A stretch of 64,000 bases of DNA from Botryllus schlosseri (taxonomy: Eukaryota), in assembly GCA_051294905.1 (NCBI GenBank), contig CM119371.1:16370001-16434000 (forward strand), read 5' to 3'. The notes under the pieces were generated by a model. That model ran no database searches. It saw only the letters and a program-made list of their open reading frames with translations, and was not told the DNA's origin. The position numbers and the translations under genes were made by a program. This document shows, piece by piece, positions 25,601 to 59,403 of this stretch. Numbering within the stretch: position 1 is the first letter of the stretch; each line of letters starts with the position of its first letter.

Positions 25601-27137
25601 GGCGTATTGTTAATTAGAAGATAAGTCGGTTATCAAACTATTAGCGAGTTTTCCAGTAGTGTATTTCGCAAAGGATATGAACATTATATATTGATGCCGT
25701 AATATACCTAGAACGGATATTTGTTCTGATATCTACCTTTGTCACATTTCTTTCATTTCGAAGGCTCTGCATATTATATTGCCACTTTGGCGGAGCTCGA
25801 CAGTCATGGGTTTGAACATTTGTTGATAAACCTTGCAGAGTTACAATCGCAGTAAGAGCGCGTCTTCTTTTGTTTCGTTTATTGTTTCGATGTTCTCATT
25901 TTACTTCTAATCTCATTTCTGGTTTCCACGTAAATGCTACAGGGGTGTATAGTGCAAACTGTATAGTGCGAAATGAGCCCAGCTTGTTGTATTGACATGT
26001 CATGGTCAATTGGTCATGAAGGTGAGCTGTTATTTGACATGAGCTGAACTTATTTTAATGTGCTCGAACGAACCCAGGTTAATAGCCACTATAATTTACA
26101 GATAATATCCCAAAATACTATATTTTTCCACTGAAGGCAAACTACCTCTTTTTATGATGTTCCATTCCCCACCCCCCCCACCCCCCAAGGCTTACCGAGT
26201 AGAATTGGAACGACGGGTGTTGCTTGGATTCCGCTATCATGAACGTTTTAAGATATACTTTGCGTCTACGGGATCAGAAGAAGTGTGCGCGAATACAATG
26301 AATATCTATAACATCAATATCACTTAAAATGTATTTTTATCTGAACAAGACACACACAATGTACAATGCGTGTATACACTGTATAGTTTTAAGGGGGGCT
26401 GATAAAGTGCTGTCACGGCGCTCCCCCTTACCCATTGTCTTCATTACAGTCCTTACAATATTAGGTCCGAGGATATTTGTGTGTATCATATTTATATACG
26501 TCTCGAATCAGTACACACAACGAGTGCATCGCAAAGTCGAATGCCTTTGGTATCGGCGACATCGTTGTACAATTCTTGTAAAATACGTGCAAAACATGTG
26601 ATGAATTAACACCGTTAGAGTCTTCTGGCAAATCGCAACTGCGTGAATTACATCTAATTCAAATACATCAATGTAAATATTTTCACCTTCGGCTTAAGAG
26701 AGTACAAATTAGTGAGCTCGTCGGGATGTTATGTAGGACCTAAGATAACGACATGTTTAGCATGATGTTGCTCTCAGCTTTCTTGGGCTATCCAACTTAC
26801 CGGTTTTACACCTCGAGAAATATACTTTTAATGTATTCGATTTGATTTATCTCACTTTTGCCCGGTCATGTCACATAGATTGATCGCATGTTGCTCCAAA
26901 CTATTTGTTATAACACTCATCTTTTTCTAATAATATTGGAGGGCTACAAACTTTGAGCAAGTGTCTTTCGGCAGCTCATATTCATTAAATATATCGATCA
27001 GATATATTAGAATGGCTCTGGACTAATAATATCAACTGATTATTTGTTCAGAAAATGTTTCTTTATAAAACGTAATTGATCTTTGTATTTTCAGTATTTT
27101 CCTTTCGTTATCTAATTAGTAGCACCTGATCAATACC

Positions 27138-27198
27138 ATGGCGGAAGGTCAAAATCAAAATTCTGGTGTCGCCGATGTCATGCCTACATCATCAAGCG
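27138..27198 (+). CDS. NLR gene 1 coding exon 1 (MAEGQNQNSGVADVMPTSSS-G)
   Basis: accATGg start context, upstream acceptor ttttcag ending at 27094, donor G|gtatgt (phase 1). Paralogous to exon 31993-32076. Confidence 0.7.
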
Positions 27199-27414
27199 GT
27201 ATGTAATACTTACACTAATTGAGCTAAGCTTCCTTCAAAATCATATCAATATAACCCATATAAAACAGTTGTAAAGTTATTTGAATATAGCACATTTCAC
27301 TCGTTGTCTTTATAAAATACCGATAGGATTCGAAGATCATAACCGAATCTATAATATTTTATGGTAAAACTATGCATGAGTCCATACGCATTACAATGAT
27401 CACGTGTGTCTTAG

Positions 27415-27561
27415 GATTCGCAACTTTGGCCGGAGGTGAAAATGTCAATCTCGAGATTACAAAGTGTCCAGTTAACGTCGTAGCTGGTGATCAGATCCAA
27501 AGGAACAAGGTCGTCTACAACATTATCAGGGATAAAGAAGAAACGAGCCCTGCTGACCAAG
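27415..27561 (+). CDS. NLR gene 1 exon 2, first cRHIM/amyloid-like repeat (FATLAGGENVNLEITKCPVNVVAGDQIQRNKVVYNIIRDKEETSPADQ)
   Basis: Acceptor gtcttag, donor G|gtgagt, 147 nt, phase 1-1, open frame. Clear paralog at 32291-32440. Confidence 0.8.
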
Positions 27562-30500
27562 GTGAGTGCTGTTGAGAATAGAACACATCTCTTTGAATCC
27601 AAGGCTTTCACTAACTAAGACAAGCAATGAATGGAAACGCAATGGTTTAGATATACCTAGGCCTACAGCAGATAACGTTCAGGCGATCGACCATTCAAGC
27701 AATAATAACAAAACAGAAATGAGATGATAGCGATCGCCGCAAGTGTAACGCTTTTTGACTCAATATGGTGTCTTATGGTGACCCCTTTTGAAGCTCCACG
27801 CCGATCATTGTCCCCAAATATTGGGAACCGAAAATGGGAATACGAACTGGGATCACCGGCGAGTTGACTAATAAAAAATAAAGGTCAACTTTTCGGCTCG
27901 ACATTACACTTTTACAGCTAAATTTTCATGATTTGACTTTAAAAAAAGTCATTTTTCCGACTTGACTCCAATCAGGGCCGCAACAGCACTTCGTCAGCCC
28001 CACTAAAATAACGTTGGTCTTAGGCCCCCCATAGGGTGATAAATAAAACCCCAGACCTCCCATAGCAAAAAGGATTTTTGTCGCTACATATCGGCTACAC
28101 GTTATTTCATGTACCGCTTGGTCACCGTATTTCGCCCAAACGCGCGAAGCGCAACAAATTTTTTTAATTCATGATTAAATTGGTCAATATGGTCGGGAAT
28201 TTTTTATCCTCTCTCTGCCCCCTAATCAAATTTACAGGTAGAGCTGAGTGTGGTGTGTTTGAAAGGTAGGATCCCTAAATAGTAATTAAACATCTTCGGG
28301 CGGACTTCGTTACATGATGCTATTTCGTGACCTCTTATAGGCCTATCTGCTATATGTCAGAAGATATGGAAATCGCCAAAACGTACCAAACTAAAAGAAG
28401 CAGATGATTTCAAATTGGTATTTCTTTCTTCAAAGAAAATAGCGCACGTGGCGACGGCGTCCATATGTCAACACAGTTATCAAATACACATTGTCTTCTT
28501 GATCTACGGTGCGAATTGAACTGCCGTGGACGTGACATTCACAATTACAAAGAATGCCATAGCTATCCACGTTCTTGATTGATAAGTAGTTCTGTGGTAC
28601 CGGCGATAAAATGTAGGCGTGCAGTGCAACGTTATATATTACCGTCGAATACTTGAATTGAGAATTGAGAAATCGATCACTATTTAGTTTTTCGGAATAT
28701 GTGCAACAGCTATACATTCGATCAATAGATATTAGTTATAATAACTTTTAAACTATTTACCATGAATCGCGTTATCGATGGTGAGTCTAGGCCCGTCTGT
28801 GCCTTACCTGTCGTTTCGTGCTTTATTTTCGAACAATAAACATGCAACTTATGTGAATTCGGGAGAAAATGTTCAAAATCTCGTCATTCATAGTCATTCG
28901 TTCGCCTACCCTGACAACAGGTAAGGCACTGCCTCACTTGCCTCCCCCAACCCCGCGTCCCTGATGTATCACAGCTTACAGCGGGTAGGCCTATATACCT
29001 CTGCAGTGACCATGTTTGGCTCCACCTACGCATGTGATCATGAGTGCTCGCATTTAAAAGGATCATCAGGACTAGTAACTCAAGTATCACATGCTCAAAT
29101 AAGGCAACCAGCATGACTAGTACGAGTTTTTACAGAGAAAATGTGGCGCACACGACAAATCCCATGTATATAGTGAGTTCGATTTGGTGCTACAATGACG
29201 TCACGAATTTTCAATTGTGACGTAACACTTGATTTACATGTATGGCTCTTTGGGAGGTAAAATGAAAAAAATTGGGCCAATATGGCTCTTCGGACCAAAA
29301 AGGTTCCCGACCACTGTCCTATAGGCCGCTGTGGTTCTCAACCTTTTTGAGCTCGCGGACCGGTAAAATTTCAATAAATAGTCGGCGGACCGGTGTACCT
29401 TCAAAAATTGAATAAACCCGAAATGCAATTGCGATAAAACCATGCAACCATTTTTTGCAGGAATGCTACTGAAGAGTGACATTTTGAGGGTTTTATTTGT
29501 GTTTATGACGGAATCCATGATATTTTGCGGTAGTGTGTCGAAGGCCGAAGGCCGTTGATTAACCGACTACACCAGGGGTTTTCAGAGGTCGTTTTATTTT
29601 GTATTTTGCAAAATGAACTAAAATATTCAGAAATGAACTGCCGATACCACCCGGTTCAATGGCATTCTTGCAATGGTGATTGGTATACCATTTCTGTCCC
29701 CGCGACTCGGTAGAATAGGCAAACTGACCCGTTGGGGTCGCGACCCCTAGGTTGGGAACCCATGGAATAAACCAACTTGAATATTATTATTCTATTCGAT
29801 AATATCGAGAAAAGAAGCGTTTCGGAGTCGGGAAAAACACCTTTGCTCATTTCCAACTACCACCAGACGTACTACGACATGCGCAGTACGAATAAAATGA
29901 GGATGTTTTTATTCAGTTTTAAATGTGATGTGTTGCTTCCTTTATCAATTTAGAAGCCTTCAACCTTTTTTATCTTGCAATTGAAGTATAAAACTACAAA
30001 ATGTCTGGCGGACCGGCACCGGTCCACGGACCGGCGGTTGAGAACCACTGAGTATAGGGTTCAGATCCTCAGGACAGGAACATTCGACAAGAGCCATTGA
30101 GGCGCCTGCGGAAAATTACACATATGTGTATATGTATCGAAGTTTTCGGTCAGCACAAGGGCATTCTTTTTCGGCCAAGGTCTTCTCGCTGTTGATCGTT
30201 CTGGCACACTTCTCGGAGTCGCATGTTACATGGCTTATAACTTCATATGTCTTGGTGCGTCGTGGTGCAGTAATGGCTGACGCCGAAGTCTCCCATTTTT
30301 AGAAATCACGCGTATTTTTGTTGGGTGACGGGTACCCCAAAATGAAGATATATGACAATTTGAAATCGCGCCCAGCGGGAAAATTTTTTGAAAAAGTTGC
30401 ATGAATTTGTAAAAAAATACTCTATAATTGATGGTATTTCACGAAATAATTTTGGTCCCCCTTCGAGTTCGCCCCCCACCCGTATTTGGGGGTTTGGGGT

Positions 30501-31992
30501 GCAGCAGTTACGGTCCTGACTCCAATATAGCCGTTTAACCGCGCCATCGCCCCCCTATCGCCCCTATCCTTGTTTTTGACCCTAAACGCCTCTTCGTTAT
30601 TTTCGCCTCCCGACACCGCCAAATCGCCCCCTGGGGGGCGATATCGCCCACGTTGGGAACCACTGATCTGGAAGAAGAATATTATTCAAGGCACGTATCC
30701 AATCACGTGCAAAGCATCAAAAGAGATATCAGGCGGCCAACAAGTCATAATAATTTTGTTGCGGTAGTGGTGTATTAGTTTGATGATACATGAATTATGC
30801 GCAATGAAATCCACAAGCGTAATCCATATGAATAGATGTCTGATTAATCTGTCAGATCAATGACTACCCTGTAACATTATCTTGACTTAGACCATATATC
30901 CAATGACCAGGAACACAGAACGCTGATGCTAAAACTACTATTATATTAGCTAGACGTACAGATCAACAGCATCTCGGCAAATAAGGAAATGACAGTACCC
31001 ACGACAGCGGGTGTAATATAAGGCAGCGTAATAATTACTTAAACAATGACGTCATGACTTGAAATGACATAAAAAACTTTTTTTAGTTAGGGTCTTGTTT
31101 TAAACATGTTTATTTTGAATTGATTTTTTTAATGCGACGCTAATTAGGGGGAGATAGTAGTAAAACTGTTTAAACGTTTATTCAAATATAACTATGTGAC
31201 AATACCGGGTAAAAGTGATTTGATGTTTAGCAAACGACACCTTTTATAATGCGAGGGTCCAGAGGTCGAGAATAAAAAAATTCTGTAGTAACACTATAAC
31301 ATATAAATATCATGGTGACAATTTAATCGAATCGCTGCAGTCAACATATTTTATAGGCATTCAAATTTATTTTTGATAACGCTTCTTGGTGACTTTTTCG
31401 GCAGCACAAAATTGTTTTCGCGGGCCATAGTTTCCCCACCTTTAGTCCATAGCCTAGCTAGAAATAGATCGTAGCAAATTATTTACGATATTCATTTGCG
31501 CCAAATGTGATGGATCCAACCGTCTGGCATTGCAATTTTTGAAGCGGAAATTCGTGGCTACCGTAGACTCCGGCATCATGTGGGATTTTGGGACTTTTGG
31601 GACTTGATACCCAGTTAAACAAGATGATTTCGTTCCCGTCGTTATGTCTCGGTGGACGTGTTGACATTGCATATTTGGCATACACGATCCTTGGCATTCT
31701 AGTGCGATAAAGTCACAGGGTTAGCGTGTAAGAAGGGGAATTTTGTTCATCTTTTACTTATCTCATTAGGGCTTGACATTATCACATGTACCATGATGAA
31801 GGCTAATTTGTCAATTACTAAAACTTCAATTACAAATGGATAATGAGACTTGCATATTGGCAACTGTCATAAATATAAACAGAATGATATAGTTTTATGT
31901 CTCGACGTGTTCTGCTGATGAAATTCACAAAGTAAAGTTATTTGTATTCTAAGTATTGAGTGTTACAATAACTAGTTCCTTCCTCGCGGTAG

Positions 31993-32076
31993 TTATCGAG
32001 GAGAAAAGACATCGACATCAATATTCTGAAGTTGCTGATGCGCCTTCATCATCATCATCATCACCCGGGGCAAGCG
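31993..32076 (+). CDS. NLR gene 1 exon 3, Ser-rich linker (VIEEKRHRHQYSEVADAPSSSSSSPGAS)
   Basis: Acceptor ttcctcgcggtag, donor G|gtaagt, 84 nt, phase 1-1. QYSEVADAP resembles QNSGVADVMP in exon 1. Confidence 0.75.
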
Positions 32077-32290
32077 GTAAGTCAATTCGGAAATATTCGA
32101 CTAGCTATTCATTTCATCAATATTATCAATACCAATAGAATATAAGTGTAATGCAATTCGTCTGTTGCGTGACCTAATGTTAACAAATGAAACGTGCAAG
32201 GTTTCCATAATGATAACATGACTTGGTGAGCTATTACTTTTTGAATATCCATCGTAACATCGCACTTCTCAACATTCCAATGTGTTACAG

Positions 32291-32440
32291 GATCAGCAAC
32301 ATTGGCAGAAGGTGAAAACCTTAATCTGAAGATAATTAACAGCTTGGTTAACAGTGTGACAGGGGATCAAGTCCAGGGGAACATGAAAGTCATCAACTAC
32401 ATCATGAAGGCTGACAATGATCCGAATCGTGCAGATGATA
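32291..32440 (+). CDS. NLR gene 1 exon 4, second cRHIM/amyloid-like repeat (SATLAEGENLNLKIINSLVNSVTGDQVQGNMKVINYIMKADNDPNRADD)
   Basis: Acceptor gtgttacag, donor A|gtaagt, 150 nt, phase 1-1. Splices in frame into the NACHT exon. Absent from the ORF track. Confidence 0.8.
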
Positions 32441-33010
32441 GTAAGTGTAAGTTGCTTTATATAGTAGTAGCGAATTGAGATTTCTATAGAAATAAGATGG
32501 TCATCGTCGTTAAATGCCGGTCAATGCACTTTATGCAATAAAGGGAAGTTAACTATTTGCCACACTTTTCACGTCACAGCAGACTTAGTACAATTTCCAA
32601 ACGACAATGACCATCGGCAATTGTACGAAGTATTGATATTTGATATAGTCTTCCTTAAAGAAAAGTTATGATACTAGAATTCAATTACACTTCTTGTCAA
32701 TTACATTTTATATACCAATGAGGTGATACTGAATTCCGTATGATATCTCAGCAAAACATCAATAAATAATTTACTTGCAAATGCATATGCAGATGCTCAT
32801 ACATCACTAAGGTCTGGTAAAAATTGACCGCGAATAAACAAACATTTAAGCTATTTTTAATGAAAAGTCGGGCTGTTCTTGCCAATCATGTAATGTTAGG
32901 CTGGATTGCACAGATGCACATCGAAGAGTAATCTCGGGGATAATTTAATTTGCGAGCAAGGTCACCTGTTGGCCGTGTTGCACAGATACGGATTCCTCTT
33001 TGAGTTACAT

Positions 33011-33601
33011 TATAGAAATTAAACATGGAACGACAACGACCGATTTTGCAGCTTCGTTCCGCTTAGCTGAGGCTGGAGTGGAGAATTGTTTTGCGTAAGC
33101 GACTGTAGGATTTCTGGCAATCCAAAAGCTATCTTCTCGAGGGCAGAAATTACTGAATCTGGTCTTGATCGAAAGCTACTGTTGCACCCATTCCGGAAAT
33201 ATAAATTATAATATTGATCAGGCACTGATCCACCTAGAATCTGTCCTCCAAGTCTAAAATATCGGCATTGTTCAGAACAATCGGGTAACCGCAACACAAT
33301 GGCCATAACAATGACCCGCTGCGACTCTCCGATTGTTCGAACAATGCCGTTATTTCAGACTTGGAGGATGGATTCTAGGTGGATCAGCGCCTGATCGTTA
33401 TTTTAACTTATATTTTCGGAATCGGTGCACCAGTAGCTTTCGATCAAGACCAGATTCAATAATTTTTGCGCTCTGGAAGATAGCTTTTGGATTGCCAGAA
33501 ATCCTACAGTTGCTTACGCAAAACAATTCTCCACTCCAGCCTCGACGAAGCGGAACGAAGCTGCATAATCGGTCGTTGCAGTTCCATGTTTAATTTCTAT
33601 A
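33011..33601. mobile_element. Foldback/palindromic MITE (about 280-bp arms) in NLR gene 1 intron 4
   Basis: TATAGAAATTAAACATGGAAC...GTTCCATGTTTAATTTCTATA, flanking direct repeat (a)gttacat. The mirror-image ORFs 33019-33306(-) and 33333-33593(+) follow from the symmetry. Confidence 0.9.
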
Positions 33602-36332
33602 GTTACATATTCGCAGATCACTGACGCAAATTTACGCAAATGACGAAGTTGGCACCCAGGACAACTGAGGCATTGCCCCTCCTAAAACTTCCATTCAATA
33701 ACAATGATTTACCATTTATAGACGCACACCAATCAACATATACCGAAGTCACAGCAAAAATCGCATTCTTTTTGTGCTTTCATTTGCCAATGCCCATTTT
33801 TAGCGCGAAGTCTGTGCGAAAATCGAAACATCTTCTGTGTTTTCGCTTGGTAAATGCCTAGCCAGAGCATGCCTCGGCAGCGCTCATAACAAGCTTTTAC
33901 TCTCTGTTCTCTCAATGCCGCTCATAATAAAGAAACGGTGATTTACTCTCTCCTACCTGGTCACAGTTCCGGGTCCTTAACACGTATTTTATGAACTTTT
34001 TGTAAACACAATTTAGTCATTTATTATGAGACAAAAATTCCCCTATTTCTTATATTATGGAAGCAATATGCCAAACAGGTACATAACCAAAATTACCATT
34101 CCAAGGAGTTTAATTGCGGTGGACTCAACAAGCTTCGTCGTTCGTGATAGCAACTGAAATCCATCTAAAAATGTGCTGGCCGTCAATTTACATATCCACC
34201 AGATTCATCATTATTGTGGTAGCTGAAACAAGACTTTTTAAGATGTGAGGTCAAAACTACGGCGTATCCAGGGAATTTAGGGGCTCGAAACCGCCTCTTT
34301 TAAAATCCTACAAAATCCACAACTCCACCAATCCTAAAATTTATGTCACATACTACCTGCTGATAATTGTCCATTCATCAACATATTATTGGTTTTTCTA
34401 CAATAGGGAAACTACGATACTTTTGAGTTATTTAGGGATCTATATCGCCTAAATCGAATAGCCGAGTTCGATAGAAAGTTTGTATCATCGCAAAAACATA
34501 ATTGCTGTCGTGTCGACAGCAGACCTCACTCGCGAATTGGATTTGCTCATCATCGTACATCAAGGATTCTGGGATTGTAAGACGCGTTGATTGATTGGAA
34601 AGAAAATCGATTACTTATGACTTGAAATTGACTCGTAAATTTGGCTTCGAGTCACGAGTCAATCTGCATTTCTGAAGCGTCGAGTCAGGTCAAGTCAAGT
34701 CATTTTTGCAAAGTGACTCGAGTCAAGTCAAGTCATGCGAAAAAGGTGACTCGAGTCAAGTCATGACTCGAGTCATCCCAACACTGCTCGCTACTACAAA
34801 TAGAACGCGTCGCACGAAAACACCCGACAACAGCTATATCTGGCCATCCACAAAATCAGGGCCAGAAAAGCACTTCTTCAGCCCACCCCCAATGAAACGC
34901 TGGTCATGTGTCCTCCACAGGGTGATAAACCAAACTTCTGGGGGTTTCGCCCCCAATACCCCACAGTTTGATGGATGTTTTCATCAGGACTTGTGAGAAG
35001 TGAGCACATTCATTCTGCTCCGTGTATCCAGAGAGTTTATGTAACCTAATCGCACCAAGCGCAAAAATTTTCTATATTTTGTCACTGCATATTTATTGCT
35101 ATAAATTTTTTATCCTATCAGAATTATCGGATTTTCCCGTGGAGCTGAGTGAGGTGTCGTTTTGGAAAATTTAAACGTAATTAATAGTTTAACATATTCA
35201 GGTGGGCCTGTTGGAATAATTTACTCGGTTACATGTCAATATTTCGTGACCAACTGTCTCTCATATAGTGAATAGATATTGAAATCGCCCCAGCGTATTA
35301 AACTAAGAGACGCACACAATTCCATATTGCTATTTCTTCACTCGTAAATAATTTGTCCTGTGGGGTACAGATTGTCAGGACAGCGCGATTCGGCGGCAGT
35401 TATTAGGCGCTTATGGACAATTAGACATATATGTATCGAAGATTTCGGTCAACAAAGTACAGTCGTTTTCGGCCAAGGTCTTCTCGCTGACGAATGTTTT
35501 TACACACTTTTCGGAGCCCCGTGTTAGCCTGAACTTAATTATGTGTTGGTGCGTTGTGGTGCAGTAATGACTGACGCTGAAATGCCTATTTCTATAAATC
35601 ACGCGTATTTCTTGATGGAATGGCACCTAATAAGCAAGACATTTATAGTGATGCACAATCGCGCAAGGCGCGGAAAAATGTGAAAAAATTTGGATAAAGT
35701 TTCAAAATACATTCAATAATTTATGTTCATTCACGAAATAATTTTCGGATCGGTCCCGTTCCAATTGCGGGGTTTGGGATGTGGCAGATACGGTCACGCC
35801 CAAAATGAATTAATCGAAAACGAATGATCGCGCAAACCGTGAGGATTAGTGAGTCAGATTGTACTTGTCGCTTGCATGTCGTCAAATGGCACGGATGTAA
35901 CTTCAAGTCAAATCGAACATGTTTCTAGCCCTAATGTTACCTCACGAAGTTCTGAATCTGTCTAAAATTTGATGTTTTATTTATTTTATCAATGGACAAT
36001 CCTTCAACATATTGCATCTTGAAATTAGGGTATATTAAATTGTAATTGACCTCGCGGACCGGCAGTAACGTCGTCGCGGACCGGCGGTTGAGAACCACTG
36101 TACTAGACTGAAGTTGGCTGACTCCGTCCTGATGCGACTGTCAAATTCGGAGTATAAATCCTCTGCCAACACGGTTTTCCACAGGAAAGCAATACCGGGA
36201 TTTGTGTGCAAACGCGTCAGATGCGCAATGCTGGTCACCTTTATAACTCCATGCACAGTTGAATTACTATATCAAGAAAGGGAAACTATATATACTTGAA
36301 GGTATGAAATGACTCTATATTTTCCGTTCCAG

Positions 36333-37733
36333 GTATCAGATCCAGAAAATTAATTCAAATTTGCAACGATAATACCAAGAAATTGACGTCCATTGACATC
36401 CTCGACGACTTCAGATTTGAGAGCCTTGAACGACCCGACTTCGAAGTTTACCCGCAAATGCGAGAAATCGACGTGCAAGATTATTACAAAGGTCGCATGA
36501 GCATTCATCGATCTCAGCTGACAAAGGAAGTTGGTTTTTTCCGCCAAGAGAAAATTGGATCAAAAATTCTCGACTTTAGGGACTTAGTGGCATCCATATT
36601 TCGAAGAGAAAAAGCAAGCTCGCTAAAAACTGTTGGAGTAACCGCTATAGTGGGATCTGCTGGATCCGGAAAATCCACACTGACACGCAGAATAGCAAGA
36701 CATGCTCTCGGCATGACTGCAGGAGACGATATCAAAGATCAGCCCTCTTACAATCAAAAGATGGTACATTACATTGAATTGAAGGATATCGAAAATGTGA
36801 CCGATTTTAAACCATCTAAATTTCTCTTCGGCGGCCTGTATCAAAACGAAAATGAAGAAGATCAGGCATTCGAATGGCTAGATAACCACCAGTCTGAGGC
36901 CATTTTTATATTTGATGGGCTTGATCAAACAGGATGGGAAGTTGATGAGAAAAGTGTCCGAAAAATGAGAAAACATGAAAAAGCTAGCTTCTGGACAGTT
37001 ATGTACAACATTCTATCCCGCAATATCCTCCGTGACGTGAAAGTGTACATAACATCGCGCGAGTTCAAGGTTTCAGAGTTACCGGCGATGGCGCGACCCG
37101 AAACCATCATTACACTGAATGGTCTTACTTCGGAAAACGCGCGTAGGTTATTTGCGTTCTTACTCAAAGAGAAAGGCGAGGAACTCTGGCAGAAAATTGA
37201 ATATATGTCTCCAAGACTGCTGAATTTAGTTTCTGTACCCGTATTCCTGATCTTAACAGCAGTTGTGATGGGAAGGGGTCCCAACAAACCTCCACCGAAC
37301 ACGGTAACAGAACTATACAACAGAATTGTATTAGCTCTGCAAAGCGTAGACAACATTCGAAATAGGAAACAAATTTTTTCGATTGTCCACAAACTGAAGG
37401 CATTAGCATTTCAAGGCATGAAAGAAGGTAGGGTCGTGTTCAAAGAAACTGACTTGACAAAATTTGGAGTGTCAACAGTGGAAGTTCAAGATTTAATGAC
37501 AAAAGTTCCGGGGAGCAATCTACTTAGCCGGCATCTGATGCAAGGAGATTTCATATTCTTCTTCTGCCATCAAAGCCTTCAAGAATATCTGGCAGCGATC
37601 TTTATATCGCAAATGGAGCTCAGCGAATTCTCTCGCTTCGATGAAGAGCTTCTCCATCAAGAACGATGGTCCGTCGTGCGACGATTCGCGGCAGGTGTTG
37701 TCTTCGCGAAACCACAAAACGATCTTTATAGAG
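36333..37733 (+). CDS. NLR gene 1 NACHT exon (STAND P-loop NTPase, HD1, winged helix)
   Basis: Overlaps the 460-aa ORF 36383-37765. Walker A GSAGSGKST, Walker B IFIFDGLDQ, sensor-1 YITSR, xxVP motif LVSVPVFL, winged-helix FFFCHQSLQEYLAA, W..V.RF.AG. Acceptor ccgttccag at 36332, donor G|gtcaga at 37734. Confidence 0.93.
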
Positions 37734-38471
37734 GTCAGATATTTTACATTAACCTTGTTTGGTAATATTTGAAATTTCACTGCTGCAACATCCAATTAAT
37801 TCTTGGTTCGAAACCACTGGAGTTGACTCCCAAAATCTTGCTAAATGTAGGAGAGGCCATCCTGTCAGGAACGAAAGTTATCCCTGTTTTCAAGTCGGCA
37901 GATCATAAATCACTAAAATAAATATAGGCATGATGCAAAATGACCACGGAGTTTGCAACACTGTCAAGTGGCAACGGGTTCAGAAATCATGCAACACCCA
38001 CAAATTCGTTTATCAGGCGGCCTGCGTGGATCAATATTCCGTCGTTAAAATTGTATATTCATATCAAATTAGTAGGCCAACTTATTGAACTTGTTGAACC
38101 ACGTCACGTTGGTTACATGGCGACACTGGTTTAAATCGATAAAATTGTGGATTATATAGCATGGCAGTTGCGAGCTATAGTGGATGAAGTCGTGCCTAAT
38201 TTTTCATACAGATCGTCAGTATACCGGAGACCTCAATTGTTGTACATCGATGTTGGAATTATAGCACTGCCTAATTGATTTGAGAAATAATAAGAGAACA
38301 TATAAGACAGCCTAGAAATTAGGTTTGTCTGCGTAAGCCTGTTCCTGGTCTGTGAGAAGACCAACAAATCAAAATCTGTCTCAACAAGTTTCTAAATCCA
38401 TCAATTGTTACGTTACCGTCAAGGCCATGAACAAAACAATAACAACAACGATGTTGCTTGTTGCGTCACAG

Positions 38472-38812
38472 TCACGGATCAGACCAAGAAGCAAAAAATT
38501 TTCGCTCGATCGATTTGTTGGCTCGAGAAGAACAGCAGCCGCGACTACACACGTAAAATGTCGCGACGCATGGATGAGGGGCACATGCGCATGGAACTGT
38601 ACACAGCGATAGTTGAATCAGGCGACGACAATCTCATGAAACATCTTACTGTCATCCATGCACCTCGCCACACTTTGAGTCGCGATCAAGCTCATATCGT
38701 TGGATCGCTCGCAGCAAGGAGTAAGAGCCTTGATACGTTGATTTTATCCTACTGCAATATCGATGACGAGATATTGGGCATTATGGCAAGGTGTCTGGAA
38801 AGTCGAATTCAC
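38472..38812 (+). CDS. NLR gene 1 exon 6, HD2 and first RI-like leucine-rich repeat
   Basis: ELYTAIVES (HD2-like) and SLDTLILSYCNIDDEILGIMARCL (LxxLxLxxCxI). Acceptor gcgtcacag, donor CAC|gtgagt. An alternative in-phase acceptor would start the exon at 38424. Confidence 0.82.
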
Positions 38813-38867
38813 GTGAGTGGCTTTATTACATTATGACTTTCGAAGGAAAACAACGAACTCGTTTCAG

Positions 38868-40765: not shown

Positions 40766-40987
40766 ATGAAATATATCAGATGCATATTTCACGGTGTATG
40801 TCGTATTTCACTCGATGACATATCGTCTCTCCTAAACAACTCTAATTTGAAGAAAGTAACATTGATATACTTGAGAAAACGTGATATGTTGAAAGGAGAC
40901 GAACTGCAGAAAGTCCAGAAGATTGCAAATGATCTCGATACTGAGTTGGAATTTTTAGAATGTGAGTCATTTTTTGTTACAGCGTAA
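40766..40987 (+). CDS. NLR gene 1 terminal exon (MKYIRCIFHG...NLKKVTLIYL...FFVTA*)
   Basis: ctcaccgcag acceptor, degenerate LRR NLKKVTLI, TAA stop ending at 40987. Confidence 0.75.
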   Translation: MKYIRCIFHGVCRISLDDISSLLNNSNLKKVTLIYLRKRDMLKGDELQKVQKIANDLDTELEFLECESFFVTA

Positions 40988-41269
40988 CTTACATAAGTTA
41001 CATTGTGTACAGGTGGTTGTCACCAATTTCCACAGTTTGCTTTCACACAATATTAGACAAACTATTGAAACGATGCAAAATCAATTCAGGCATGCTCTAT
41101 CAAGTTTAAAATGCACAATCTCATATTGTACGACTCTGTCAGCATACGTCGCCGAGTATTCCATAGTTTGTTTTGAGGTATTCATGGTGTTTGTCGACTA
41201 CTATGGTCATTTATACCAGGCCGATATTCTTTATTTTTATTCCGCAGCTGCCGACTGCGCGTCCCACTT

Positions 41270-41436
41270 CTAGGTTTTTGTTGTAAGACACCGCTTGCGC
41301 GGATGAGGTGGTGAGGAGACGCCTAGATAAACCTTCAACACTTGGGTATACGAATTCTGAAGTTGACCTCGGTCGGATTCGAACCCGCAACCTATTGGTG
41401 TGGCAGCCGCGTCATATACCACTGCGCTATCTCGCC
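41270..41436 (-). mobile_element. tRNA-derived SINE
   Basis: Minus strand GGCGAGATAGCGCAGTGGTA (A box) ... GGGTTCGAATCC (B box), followed by a non-tRNA body. Confidence 0.75.
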
Positions 41437-42989
41437 ACAATGCCACAGTTATTTTAAATTTTGTTTGGTTGGAATATAATTTGTATCCGGTTTATAAGAA
41501 AAAGATCATTCGCATTGAGATCGAATATCGATCTTATATTAAATGACAGAAATATCACAGAATCGAAACCAGTTTCATCACGGCCCGAATACTCCGCATC
41601 TTAAACCATATCGCTGTAACGCGATCACCGATCATGTTGCATGAAATGCTCATTTCACACAGCGGGCCTAATGCGTTACTAAGGCAACTACAAAACTTGT
41701 GCTATAGTTTCATTCATGACATCGCGTTGTTACCACAGGTACCTCATAACGCACCGTAGTAGTGAATATGTGTTAAATTCGATATCCTATGCCTAATACG
41801 ACTATTGGATGTAAAAAATTCAGGCATGATTTCTCATACCGTGCTGTTAGTGAACTTGTGTATGAATTCTCTCAATTTCGAAGCAAGAAGTAGTTGAAAG
41901 TCGTCAGAAAAAATACTTTTACTTGACAAGATCAAGTATGGAAAAATCCATACTTCAGCGTTAAAAAACTGTTGACGTAGAAATAGTATACAAACAAAAC
42001 TACTTGTGTAAGTGGAAGAGTCGCTTTAACCTAATTAAGTACTACAGAAAAGTAGAATTACTTCGCTGCTGATCATGCCCTTAGATACTAGGGGTGTGAT
42101 AAAGATATATCGAGCTTGATAAAAGGGCGATGAGTCAAAACATTTTGCGAATCGGGGGTAATAGTTAATACTCACGCATAAATAGAAGTTAGCGCCGTGA
42201 GATCCTACCGAAATACAAGTAGAAGTAGCAATTTCCAACAAAAAAACAAAATTTTCCCAAGTGGAGGTAGAAAATGTAATGTTCCGAAATGCGCTCAAGT
42301 AAGCAGTTTCAAAAAGTAGATTTGCTCGAAGAGTCACATACTTTTTGCAGTTAATAGGATATCTACATTCGAAATTGCATGATATATCTTCGCGGCTAAT
42401 GGGAAATATCTATCTGCAAATGAGCAGGATCTTTGAAAATATATACTTGTCGTTGCCGTGGTAAATGGGCTATTTCATACGGCTCCTATGACACTTTCAC
42501 GACAAAAACGACAAAACCTCATCTAGGAACTACTTGATACTATACAAATTCCAAATTCTATCAAGTAAGTACTTTTTACTAGCAACTGTTACAGCAAGTA
42601 GAAATTGAAGTAGTCTCCCTGAGTATTCTGGCAAAGTAAAAGTAGTTCGTTACTCACCACAATCTCTGAATGATCCGTAGTTTTCTGTCATACAGAATCC
42701 CACTTATTTTATCGGAAGTGATACGCATCATCTCATCGGGTAGAGACGTCATTGGAATGTGTATCCTCTGAATGTAAGTTGATGTACGTTGTTCCTTCTC
42801 TAAGTATAACTGAAATATAATGTGCGAAGTGTGAAATGAAAAAGAAGTGTTGAAAATAGCTTAACAAAGTAAGCGTTGTGCGGAACATGTTGATATAAGA
42901 AACTGATACGGATGTTCCGACGATAAATACGATAACAATATAAGATACAACTGATTTATATATGTTCACAATAAAAGTCGCTTCAAAGA

Positions 42990-55515: not shown

Positions 55516-57040
55516 CTATATAGGCTGACTAGTATTCATTTAGAACAGAGGTCTCAAACACGCGGCCCGCGAGTCCATTTTGTGCGGCCCGCGTCAGCAT
55601 TTTGGATTTTCAAGTATATTCTTCATTTTTTAACCGCCACATATCTTTTTAAGATTTGAGAGCTTGGAATTCACCCAAAACTGCCCAAAAACCCTAACCT
55701 ACTCGTCAAACTTCAATATAGCAACACTTTCAAAGGCTACCGTGCAGTGGCAGATCTGCTGTTATATCACGTTAACTGTTCATGATGATAAAACATGACC
55801 CATTGATGATTTGTGACTGAAAAATGTGATTTTGACTTATCCGGAATCGTCCATAGAATTACTTGTAATCGAACTGACTATGGGGTATCGTATATCAGAT
55901 GAAAAAGACTTGAGTTGAGTCGGTTCAAACGTTAAAATTAGAGTAGGACTTGTGACTTGGAACGCGGTGGGTTGGTAAAGCCATAGACACAACGAGCTAT
56001 CAAACTGTCATGATGAATACTAATATATAAGAGGGTCGTAGCCGGCGTTGCGTAGCGTGGGTAGCGGATTTCGTTATCGTAGCGTAGCGTGGGCAGCGGA
56101 TTTCGTTATCTAAGCAAGTCGTTGTCGGTATTGCAACCATTAGCAATATGTTGCCTCCTAGCCGCAAGCTTTAAAATTGTAACGCGACAGCTTTCACAAT
56201 GTCATGATGCATTTGTCCACTTGTACTGTATCTGCATCTCAATATTTTGACAAGTTATGCCAAGTACAACAACAATTTTATTCGATTATTTGAAAATGTG
56301 ATTTTTTTTCGTGTCAGGCGTGAATATTACGTGAATATCACATTTTCACGATGTGTGGGGAATGCCAGCAGTTTACAAGGTCCCGTCCGATAAGGCATAC
56401 TTGAAAATACATTTAATACCCTTTATTTGATGCTGCGGCTCGCGGCGTCATCAAAAACTAGGAAATTGGCCCGCGAGCACATTTGAGTTAGGTACCTCTA
56501 ATTTAGAAGAAATTGCTTGTATTTCGACTTGAAAGCCGACATGCTCGATGACTGTCGGATAGCTGGCGAGATGCTGTTCCACAATCGGGGTCCGGCATAC
56601 TTGATAGAGCAATGCATCTTTTTGTATGCAGTTCCGTGTTTTCCAACGAGTCACGGAAACCTATCTCAAGTAATTTAAGATGAGCTGCCGCGACACTATC
56701 GCTATGCGATGTCCATAGCATGGTAAATCGCTAGGCTGCGTTCTCAGGGACTGAAGGCGCATTGCTTTTAAACTTACTCTGTTGTGATACAAAGCTACTG
56801 AAAGTCCATTGTCTGTTTCATCGACTGCCTCGAGTACGTTTTCATCACCCAATTTGCATATAATTATCTCTGTGACAATAGCCTGTAAATGTTGAGCTAG
56901 GGACCTCAGCCAGTTGCAAAACGCACCCTTCGGCTCACATGTACTAATATACGAGCATGCGTACATTCTGCCACCGTGTAGAGTACCAGTCCCGATTGCT
57001 TATCAACGACTTTGAAAAGTAAAGTATTACTTCAAAACAG

Positions 57041-58197
57041 ATCTCGCCATAAAGATCAACGAAGAGACGAAAATGGCAGTTGAAAAATTGAAGGAGCACA
57101 AAGAAATTTCACAAACGGATCTCGCACCACTTACGAATGAGTATGACACGCGTTATCGACGCTTGGCACTAGGAGAATCGATGAGACGTAGGAGTCAAAC
57201 ACCGGATACGAAAGAAATCGAATCCTACTACGCTGTGTCACTAAATACAGTACATCTACGCCCGAACGGAAAAACCTCCACAACGGTGCTACTTGTTGGG
57301 GGACCAGGCGACGGAAAGACCACCACTGCAATAAAGTATACCACTAGAGCTATGAGACGCGAAATTATGGGACCCTCAGATGTGAAACTCATCGTCTTCA
57401 TTGAAGGAAAAGACATACAATGGGAACGCGAATGCAGACCTTTTGATCTGTTATTCAAAGATCAATTCGCTAATATTGTTACAAGTGCGCCAACCTCAAA
57501 ACCACTTGAAAAATGGATAGCTCAGAATCCATCTGAAGTTTTAGTGATCATTGACGGTATTGACGTAGCAAAAACAAAGTCTATTAGCCCTGCAAGAATA
57601 ACTTTGGATCAACGGGTACATCCAATTTTCATAATAATCAACCTTCTTCGGCGCGATATTTACAGGGGAATGTGGGTAATGTGTACTACGACACCGCAAT
57701 GGCTTTGGAAATTAACTTATGTTATTGATGATGTTGTTGTTGTCAATATCTTGGGGTTCGACGAAAAGGACGTTCTAGATATCCTGGTGCAACTCACGGG
57801 CGAGAGGCAACGTGTTGGCCTGCTCCTGCATTGTTATCCAGCTATAAAAGACATGTGCAAGACCCCAGCTATGCTGATACACTTGGCTGGTCAAATTAAG
57901 GAGAACGAAACAATGACTGATATAAAAATTCTCCTTGACGCTATAGACTTTTTCGACTCACATCATGCTGGCAATGAGGAGATTGTAAGCAAGCAGATGA
58001 AGTTTATAATGGCAGTTGCACACAAGGCAGCAACAACAGGAACAGTGGATTTAGAAATACAAGATTCTGATAAGAACACCGCTTATGCAATGGCTCATTA
58101 CATTTCGGTGACATATCACGAAAATGCCGGACGATTCGTTGGAAAGACGATACAGAACCACCATCTTCGTTACAAATTCATTAGTGTAGCGATGCGA
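57041..58197 (+). CDS. NACHT/STAND NTPase exon of a second, divergent NLR-like gene
   Basis: ORF 57073-58368. Walker A VLLVGGPGDGKTT, Walker B VLVIIDGID, ILGFDEKD, MCKTPAML. Acceptor caaaacag at 57040 (phase 1), likely donor CGA|gtgagt at 58198. The ORF tail after 58238 reads into a transposon. Confidence 0.85.
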
Positions 58198-58237
58198 GTG
58201 AGTAAAATATCAACTTCACATGAAGGTGTAGGCCTAC

Positions 58238-59403
58238 CAGTGATGAGCATGGGACCGACTCGGGTAGCATTTGCGCCGGATATTGAACAATTTGGTGACA
58301 GTCGGATAGGATTTGGATATTATCACGGAATTATTTTAGGATATTGTCGAATAGTTGTAATCGGATAGGATTTGGATATTATCACGGAATTATTTTAGGA
58401 TATTGTCGAATAGTTGTAATTTTTATATGGATAGCTGTAAACAGGAGTGAGTTTTGATTACAAGCTCACACAATAAAGTCATCAATTCGATAACAAAACA
58501 CAGACATTTGACAACTTGCAAAATGACTGGTAGCACTCCAAAATGTTTGTCAAGGGTCCAGGCAAATATAAATAAAAAAACACCTCTACCATTGGAGAGT
58601 GGAAAATACTATAAGGCCAATCGTGATATCATATTTATTTGGTAAAACAGATTAAGCCAAGGATACAGCACAGTTGAAGATAAGTCTCTTCTCTTCCAAT
58701 AAACAAGTTAGCGAAACAACTACTGACTTGCTACTGGTGAGAAAGTTTGGACATCTTTGGTTGGACCTAATTTCGGGATGGTGCTTTAGCATTATGTATA
58801 TTGACATTTTGTGTGACACGACTATAAGCGAAATTTGAGGTGTTTGTCAAAGGTATTATAAGCATCAGCAAGTTGTTAGTGAACATGATTTCACACCTTC
58901 CATTATTTGTTGGCAAAATGCGGCTTATCTGCATCCAATGCTGACGTGCTATAATTGTAAAATTCCATGATAACAATTAGCTTCTATTAGTTATTGATAT
59001 TTGTTGGGTAACATGGTTAAATACTCGGTTGTTTATATGTTGATGGCCTAATAATTTCGGTACTTTTTCGTATAGGCAACTTTCATTCGCACACGTACTT
59101 CAAATTGGTAGCGTTATCTCTTAGCGTTATCCTTCCAATAGTTAAAAGTCCAATTTTTTGTTATTTGTTTTTGTTGATTCCATTGATATACTATTAGTGA
59201 ACTTCCAGTGCCGAACTGTATCTCATATCAGTTGTACAATTGATACACCATCGCAACGTTTTCCGATACAATCTTTATTTGGGGATTATTGGAGATAGTC
59301 GAATAGTTGGATGAGATTCTTCGGAGTCGGACGGATAGCTTACCAGAAACTCAACCTGTCGGACGGATTCGGATTCTAAGAACTCAATATCTGCTCATCA
59401 CTG
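58238..59403. mobile_element. hAT-type non-autonomous element just downstream of the NACHT-2 exon
   Basis: TIR CAGTGATGAGCA. TSD aggcctac/aggcctaa once the nested 59407-59815 element is removed. Confidence 0.8.
58302..58420. repeat. Tandem duplication, 2 x 59 bp
   Basis: tcggataggatttgg...atagttgtaa at 58302 and 58361. Confidence 0.9.

Follow-up and report, generated by a model that had tools for sequence, protein, structure and literature searches.

What takes the place of the effector domain in a NOD-like receptor (NLR) whose N-terminus holds neither a death-fold domain (Death, CARD, PYD or DED) nor a TIR domain? The question is raised by a gene on the plus strand of a stretch of Botryllus schlosseri DNA of 64,000 nucleotides (nt) (contig CM119371.1, positions 16,370,001 to 16,434,000 of the forward strand), which we call the window and number from its first letter. 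A preliminary description of this DNA placed at 27138-37733 an NLR with two copies of a short motif ahead of its NACHT domain, likened the motif to RHIM (RIP homotypic interaction motif) and the cryptic RHIMs (cRHIMs) of Drosophila, and proposed that the gene signals by amyloid templating. In this work we have examined the gene model, the distribution of the motif in the genome and the proposed mechanism. The gene belongs to a large, lineage-specific NLR family in which the effector position before NACHT is filled by a non-globular motif of 35-40 amino acids (aa), and signalling of the amyloid type is a plausible, tentative account of what this motif may do.

The 5' half of this multi-exon gene lies where the preliminary description had put it and is predicted to consist of five exons (Table 1). 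All its introns run from GT to AG, with phase 1 at each junction. Exons 1-4 sum to 61+147+84+150 = 442 nt, that is 147 codons plus one base, and read on in frame through the long open frame at 36308-37765, in agreement with the N-terminal stretch of about 147 aa that had been claimed. Both motif strings were recovered letter for letter in the plus-strand frames 27327-27575 and 32245-32478; they are 48% identical over 49 aa and are flanked, as described, by Ser- and charge-rich linkers. In the frame 36335-37765 Pfam recognized a NACHT domain (PF05729, E 1.9e-18, 67.3 bits against a cut-off of 26.7) and a winged helix (NOD2_WH, E 6.6e-06, 26.6 bits against 23.1), so the gene has the NACHT NTPase with a Walker A motif, followed by a winged helix, that marks an NLR. 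On exons 2-4 no Pfam family was found at E<=10, and the 147 aa are made up of the two motif copies and their linkers, with no death-fold or TIR domain. Judged by its predicted exons and domain matches, the locus is a real NACHT-type NLR gene with an N-terminus free of both kinds of domain, as had been proposed.

Is the motif a peculiarity of this gene? The preliminary description had considered that no other protein in the genome might share it, and this does not hold. With the 49-aa product of exon 4 as query, the genome (495.5 Mb) gave 102 matches, 38 of them at E<=1e-3 and 64 at E<=0.1. Twenty-four aligned copies are nearly free of gaps over the first ~35 columns and give the consensus SATLAEGENVNLKFINSxVNVVAGDQIxxNKxVxNI, in which A2, L4, G7, V19 and D25 are invariant and S1, A5, N9, S17, N20, V22 and Q26 are kept in at least 90% of the copies. 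The central G-D that had been singled out is thus preserved in its second half, D25 being present in 24/24 copies, and less so in its first, since three of them have R instead of G. Of the 30 best loci, 29 agree in where the acceptor AG lies and 29 have a phase 1 donor of the type GT[AG]AG (the full GT[AG]AGT in 28), and the motif exons called are 126 to 153 nt long, each length divisible by 3. When 435 paralogue pairs were compared across 30 codons, the pooled ratio of nonsynonymous to synonymous differences per site (pN/pS) was 0.31, its Jukes-Cantor-corrected counterpart (dN/dS) was 0.21, and pN was lower than pS in 423 of the pairs. Identity at codon positions 1/2/3 was 0.82/0.86/0.61, and 0.32 in the upstream intron. 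With splice sites conserved and dN/dS at 0.21, the motif exon is therefore neither a chance reading frame nor a decaying repeat, and the conserved splice phase together with the same ratio counters a transposon-derived frame as well. By its splice signals and codon pattern it is a genuine, constrained, symmetric phase-1 exon. Two motif-bearing fragments of open reading frames (ORFs) from other assemblies, P0014 and P0018, have best matches to this genome of 49-64% identity; the motif family is therefore present in at least one other organism.

The distribution of the motif follows that of the NLRs. We merged the NACHT loci found with Pfam NACHT (at least 224 candidate sites, 94 scored), with the NACHT exon of the window as query (216 candidates, 89 scored) and with seven further frames, which gave at least 126 distinct loci in the genome. 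A NACHT exon on the same strand and at most 30 kb downstream accompanies 29 of the 38 strong motif matches (E<=1e-3), 42 of the 64 at E<=0.1 and 60 of all 102, with a median gap of 8.7 kb between motif and NACHT. With 126 loci in 495.5 Mb, chance would provide such a neighbour to ~0.4% of random stranded sites, or ~0.14 of 38. Conversely, 56 of the 126 located NACHT loci have the motif upstream. A crude pattern scan for a phase-1 start exon of the type MAEGG...NSGVADV.PTS... upstream of the motif exon was positive at 14 of 30 loci when 1.5 kb was scanned and at 6 of 9 when 3 kb was scanned. This exon is 20-26 codons long and is followed by the motif exon, which places the motif at the extreme N-terminus, before the nucleotide-binding and oligomerization (NOD) region. 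Taken with the downstream NACHT, the scan therefore gives a family plan of start exon, motif exon(s), NACHT exon and further exons. Along contig C1, motif and NACHT loci, most of them in minus orientation, crowd near both ends (0.18-4.5 Mb and 39.4-41.6 Mb) in large tandem arrays of this NLR subfamily.

How did the gene come to have two copies? When the region 27100-27600 was aligned with 31955-32480, exon 1 was colinear with exon 3 and exon 2 with exon 4, and the introns inside both cassettes were short and of similar length. The start exon was therefore copied to give exon 3, in which the ATG is gone and an acceptor has been acquired upstream. In the search of the whole genome, the copy 2 query recovered copy 1 with E 2.0e-4 and 54% identity, a resemblance beyond chance. 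Going by this alignment, the two motif copies arose by tandem duplication of a two-exon cassette ~4.9 kb in length, made up of start exon and motif exon. Such tandem copies are exceptional in the family, with four same-strand pairs no more than 10 kb apart among the 102 genome matches. The beginning of the start exon (27138-27164, and likewise in paralogous start exons), MAEGG/Q..N.., resembles the beginning of the motif, LAEGENVN, and could be a degenerate partial copy of it; the match of the start exon to the motif profile was non-significant (E 3.8).

Among named proteins, the NACHT exon has its closest, and only strong, relatives in two NLRs of Styela clava, with 33-34% identity over 36398-37705 (E 1e-72 and 1e-69); teleost NLRs come next with 22-25%. 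Judged by these relatives, the host is probably an ascidian tunicate. These Styela proteins, LOC120326636 (P0005) and a 'NACHT, LRR and PYD domains-containing protein 2-like' (P0004), share the pre-NACHT region, NACHT and the winged helix with the present gene and differ from it in what precedes the homologous pre-NACHT region. In P0005 this is a Death-domain match just short of the threshold (22.5 bits, cut-off 22.6), and its equivalent position supports the view that the motif occupies the effector position. In P0004 it is ~300 aa of other tandem repeats, which gave a probability of 0.2 when compared with the motif profile by hhalign. The repeats in residues ~1-300 of P0004 are rich in alternating V/I/T/S/A/E/Q (e.g. 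...ITGAxVQDxSI...) and have no Pfam match; they may represent a further non-globular type of N-terminus among tunicate NLRs. No Styela protein matched the motif profile at E<=1e-3 among 1.84 billion representative proteins.

A known globular domain, the other outcome that the preliminary description had weighed, is not found either. AlphaFold2, run on the motif exon with the family alignment, returned no secondary structure, a per-residue confidence (pLDDT) of 60.2 and a predicted template-modelling score (pTM) of 0.21; the motif is therefore not a small globular domain. It is enriched in N, V and I, with N at 15.3, V at 13.5 and I at 10.4% against 4.3, 7.4 and 7.0% in the NACHT exon, and it is poor in Pro (0.6%) and free of Trp. 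The profile search of the 1.84 billion representative proteins yielded 16 matches at E<=1e-3, of which 11 were short ORF fragments of the same motif. A word-indexed homologue search with the motif profile, meant for longer proteins, returned just three short fragments, and the best score in the ESM Atlas was 0.77, under any useful level.

What might such a motif do? Amyloid-type signalling is, in our analysis, the best single explanation, and we put it forward as possible and no more firmly than that. The motif would be a homotypic beta-strand assembly element. Ligand-driven oligomerization of NACHT would gather several N-termini, the gathered motifs would stack as an amyloid-like cross-beta nucleus, and this nucleus would recruit more motif-bearing molecules. 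The mode of action would resemble that of NWD2/HET-s, of the bacterial BASS/Bell pairs or of RHIM, outside those sequence families. Points which may speak for it are the position at the extreme N-terminus before the NOD region, the length of 35-40 aa and the N/V/I-rich, Pro-poor composition, and also the conserved Gly, Asn and Gln, the disordered-looking linkers, the tandem repeat and the precedents.

These precedents are drawn from Kajava et al. (2014, Sci Rep, PMC4262963) and from the preprint of Dyrka et al. (2020). In amphioxus, RHIMs occupy positions usual for CARD-related six-helix domains, and BF82280 has an NWD2-like plan of N-terminal motif, NACHT and repeat; RHIMs on NACHT proteins and tandem RHIMs are reported in amphioxus and other invertebrates (Kajava et al. 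2014). The RHIM-NACHT-repeat proteins of Branchiostoma floridae are, like the present gene, an invertebrate chordate NLR type with a short non-globular motif at the death-fold position. Some of these and other invertebrate RHIM proteins have two or three copies on unfolded linkers, and they too form a large, heterogeneous, immune-related family. The architecture is therefore already known for another invertebrate chordate. Of the claim that it is unusual, what stands is that it departs from the vertebrate NLR norm, and what falls is its novelty among invertebrates. The difference lies in the motif, which here is off the RHIM model and the RHIM core signature, through which the comparison was made. 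What is new is a distinct motif, undetectable as RHIM, in a lineage reported to lack RHIMs: according to Kajava et al. (2014), tunicates appear to be without them.

In fungal NWD2/HET-s, HRAM, sigma and PP and bacterial BASS/Bell, too, a NACHT/NB-ARC receptor begins with a short motif at its extreme N-terminus (Dyrka et al. 2020), sometimes as pseudo-repeats, and the proximity-induced nucleation proposed for them is the same as that proposed here. Tandem repeats are also known for RHIM and HET-s (Kajava et al. 2014). However, the fungal and bacterial systems are defined by an effector-side copy of the motif, usually encoded by an adjacent gene and placed at the C-terminus of a separate protein (Dyrka et al. 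2020), and none was found here in the window or the loci inspected. The present motif, known from sequence alone, is also without similarity to the fungal and bacterial amyloid families, as judged by Pfam and by the profile search of PDB. The cRHIMs of Drosophila PGRP-LC/LE and Imd resemble it as divergent RHIM-like motifs on invertebrate immune receptors, but they are detected by RHIM profiles and their amyloid has been shown experimentally, whereas the motif here goes undetected by the RHIM profile and sits on an NLR and not on a PGRP. Among the literature matches listed, we found no description of tunicate NLRs with a motif of amyloid-like or RHIM-like character; the 15 papers listed out of 4,753 matches have no occurrence of 'RHIM', and a genome paper of one ascidian makes no mention of NLR, NACHT or NOD-like.

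Other results weigh against the amyloid-type reading. The preliminary description had called the motif rich in N/Q/V/I with alternating hydrophobics; N, V and I are indeed enriched, but Q is not (4.3% against 4.7% in the NACHT exon), and the alternation is local only, the 180-degree hydrophobic moment over columns 8-37 being reached by 2900 of 5000 shuffles and so non-significant. In a homo-amyloid that is in register, like charges would come to lie on each other at the invariant Asp and at the conserved Glu and Lys. The claimed membership of RHIM and cRHIM failed. The Pfam models of RHIM, HET-s and sigma matched 0 of the 24 motif copies at E<=10 (all of Pfam gave two unrelated, spurious single matches, E 0.09-0.16). 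RHIM (PF12721, cut-off 20 bits) had three weak matches genome-wide, the best at 17.7 bits and none at the listed motif sites. The signature G-phi-Q-phi-G, common to RHIM, PP and BASS3 (Dyrka et al. 2020), is absent as well; in the consensus V-V-A-G-D-Q-I-x-[G/A/V]-N, Asp replaces the first hydrophobic residue and an extra residue precedes the second, non-conserved Gly. Membership of RHIM/cRHIM is rejected on these three counts. When all PDB chains were searched with the profile, three unrelated matches were the sole outcome (E 0.8-1.2). Finally, each of the five longer proteins among the 16 matches mentioned above has several short matched stretches, and the two inspected are bacterial repeat proteins whose match is coincidental.

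The search for partners points in the same direction. No third motif copy exists in the window, where the next best of 2224 ORFs scored 10.3 bits, the motif profile gave the expected copies only in 20 stretches of 10 kb from the genome, and no effector-side copy was seen among the 1.84 billion representative proteins, with two of the five longer matches inspected. Nine strong motif matches have no known NACHT, and four of these orphan sites were inspected, the other five being C1:994856, C1:1149360, C1:314008, C14:23542439 and C3:13119637. At the four, the 9-17 kb downstream held junk or transposon-like ORFs with no recognisable domain. Two orphan sites, C1:3643668 and C10:5002024, carry the NLR-type start exon, and at C1:2139622, seemingly an orphan, NACHT was found 19 kb downstream. 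None of the 116 Death-domain matches of the genome lies near an orphan motif site when the two sets are compared by eye. Within the loci inspected, the motif carriers seen so far are paralogous NLRs only.

RNA gave no help. In three bulk RNA-seq runs with the same species label, of which 6-13 in 100 of each run were read, the depth was 0 in the bins of exons 1-2 and of exon 5 and 0.03 in the bin of exons 3-4, and the four predicted junctions are absent from the RNA joints listed, 15 out of 24. A contig from dataset X1, which may be DNA, covers 27430-27584 unspliced across the exon 2 donor, and the intronic RNA signal falls on repeats. The predicted splicing therefore rests on sequence logic and on conservation in the family; the null result at the gene is not evidence of silence. 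RHIM membership fails, no partner outside the NLRs was found in the loci inspected, and the exons are without reads in the RNA examined; amyloid signalling is therefore a plausible inference here and not a result.

Could the motif instead be a docking site? It might be a short linear or beta-augmentation element which binds a folded adaptor, or the body of its own receptor in autoinhibition, with defined stoichiometry and no templated polymerization. Any short interaction motif could take this form, a conserved stretch of few residues that is non-globular and kept by purifying selection. The conserved charges, the invariant Asp included, the lack of a motif-bearing effector in the window and loci inspected, the non-significant beta-type alternation and the absence of matches to known amyloid families all agree with it. 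Against docking, 35-40 conserved residues are long for a linear motif, an N/V/I-rich, Pro-poor and Trp-free segment at the N-terminus before the NOD region is the layout of the fungal and bacterial NLR amyloids, and the tandem duplication of the cassette is paralleled by the repeats of RHIM and HET-s. We consider docking unlikely on balance, though a serious contender, and rank it after the amyloid-type reading.

It may also be that the motif is functional in the family and this particular gene is not, being unexpressed or on its way to a pseudogene, with a tandem that has no function. The empty exons in the three RNA runs, the rarity of the tandem arrangement and the weak exon 5 donor GTCAGA fit such a copy, and NLR families of this size commonly include many pseudogenes. 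Nevertheless, all five exons are open, the splice sites are canonical, the start codon, the upstream stop and Walker A are intact, and a small part of each RNA run was read, while expression of NLRs is often low or induced. A silent or decaying copy is therefore, in our estimate, improbable.

Still less probable is a direct executioner, in which a ring of N-terminal motifs would insert in the membrane as a beta-barrel-like pore, comparable to the helices of the plant coiled-coil NLR resistosome, and would make a partner unnecessary. This would agree with the failure to find a partner in the window and loci inspected, with the position at the extreme N-terminus and with the local amphipathic stretches VNLKF and VNVV, but the overall amphipathic periodicity is non-significant and the motif is Asn-rich with several charges. 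We know of no precedent for a membrane-pore motif at the N-terminus of an animal NLR. The least probable of all is a true but highly divergent RHIM with a common ancestor with the vertebrate, amphioxus and insect RHIMs, to which a similar layout (a hydrophobic/Asn stretch, then G-D-Q-I), disordered linkers on both sides, the occupation of the death-fold place as in amphioxus and an insect RHIM consensus that is also shifted (Kajava et al. 2014) might point, and against which stand the profile and signature results given above and the lack of tunicate RHIMs by generalised profiles in the same paper.

To return to amyloid-type signalling, the motif looks like an undescribed, lineage-specific substitute for RHIM in the same slot of a large NLR family. 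Signal transmission of the amyloid type by NLRs is established in fungi and bacteria, and to our knowledge it is known in animals only through RHIM. If the amyloid-type reading is true, a second, unrelated motif family exists in chordate NLRs and the architecture arose repeatedly in animals. Perhaps a tunicate lineage without RHIM evolved its own NLR amyloid signalling motif on more than 50 paralogues, and an activated receptor polymerizes its sisters, or an undiscovered adaptor, in a prion-like manner; this wider scenario is rather unlikely as it stands. Were it true, and the host a colonial ascidian with allorecognition by fusion or rejection, there would be a parallel to heterokaryon incompatibility in fungi by NLRs and amyloid motifs. 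At 35-40 aa, with A2, L4, G7, V19 and D25 invariant and Asn and Gln nearly so, the motif would make a tractable peptide. Should it prove not to be amyloid, it still defines, for 56 or more NLR loci of this genome, a module at the effector position that is unannotated and blank in current domain libraries.

Table 1. Predicted features of the NLR gene and its surroundings, in positions of the window
Feature	Position	Strand	Remarks
In-frame TAG stop	27120..27122	+	18 nt 5' of start codon; read from sequence
Exon 1: start codon + 20 codons (MAEGQNQNSGVADVMPTSSS)	27138..27198	+	ATG in accATGg context; donor GTATGT; phase 1
Exon 2: motif copy 1, 147 nt, phase 1-1	27415..27561	+	Acceptor AG, donor GTGAGT; 80.5 bits against family profile
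Exon 3: Ser-rich linker, 84 nt, phase 1-1	31993..32076	+	Acceptor AG, donor GT[AG]AGT; exon 1 duplicate without ATG; colinear with exon 1 in cassette alignment
Exon 4: motif copy 2, 150 nt, phase 1-1	32291..32440	+	Acceptor AG, donor GTAAGT; 82.0 bits against family profile
Exon 5: pre-NACHT region, NACHT (Walker A GSAGSGKST), winged helix	36333..37733	+	Follows ...ttccag; donor GTCAGA
Open frame, probably next exon(s)	38396..38836	+	Weak LRR-like signal: LRR_6 E 0.13, LRR_FBXL18 E 0.022, both under cut-off

Downstream of the NACHT exon, C-terminal repeats were sought in four more frames, none of which had a Pfam match, and the leucine-rich repeat regions of the Styela clava NLRs gave no tblastn match at 38396-38836 at E<=0.01. 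Further downstream, by 19 kb, 57016-58368 on the plus strand is a second long open frame of 450 aa with the P-loop GGPGDGKTT. Its similarity to the Styela NLRs, in their NACHT region, is weak (20-22% identity, E ~8e-4), and it is probably another gene of the STAND (signal transduction ATPases with numerous domains) or NLR type, with no motif copy nearby.

Some of the sequence around the exons is repetitive. The open frames 33019-33354 on the minus strand and 33315-33593 on the plus strand encode a near-identical peptide, and both RNA and contig depth are high there; near-identical peptides on opposite strands at 33019-33593 indicate an inverted repeat or foldback element in the intron between exons 4 and 5. 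In two other segments, 34510-35043 and 40918-41451, the word depth of contigs is very high and the RNA reads have many loose ends. Both are dispersed repeats, probably of transposon families that are expressed, and not NLR exons. Elsewhere in the genome, many of the 116 Death-domain matches form inverted pairs ~10-23 kb apart with equal scores, such as C4:20656892(+)/20667428(-), C5:25440527(-)/25450416(+) and C12:17220158(-)/17243607(+), which suggests a repeated palindromic unit with a Death-domain exon.

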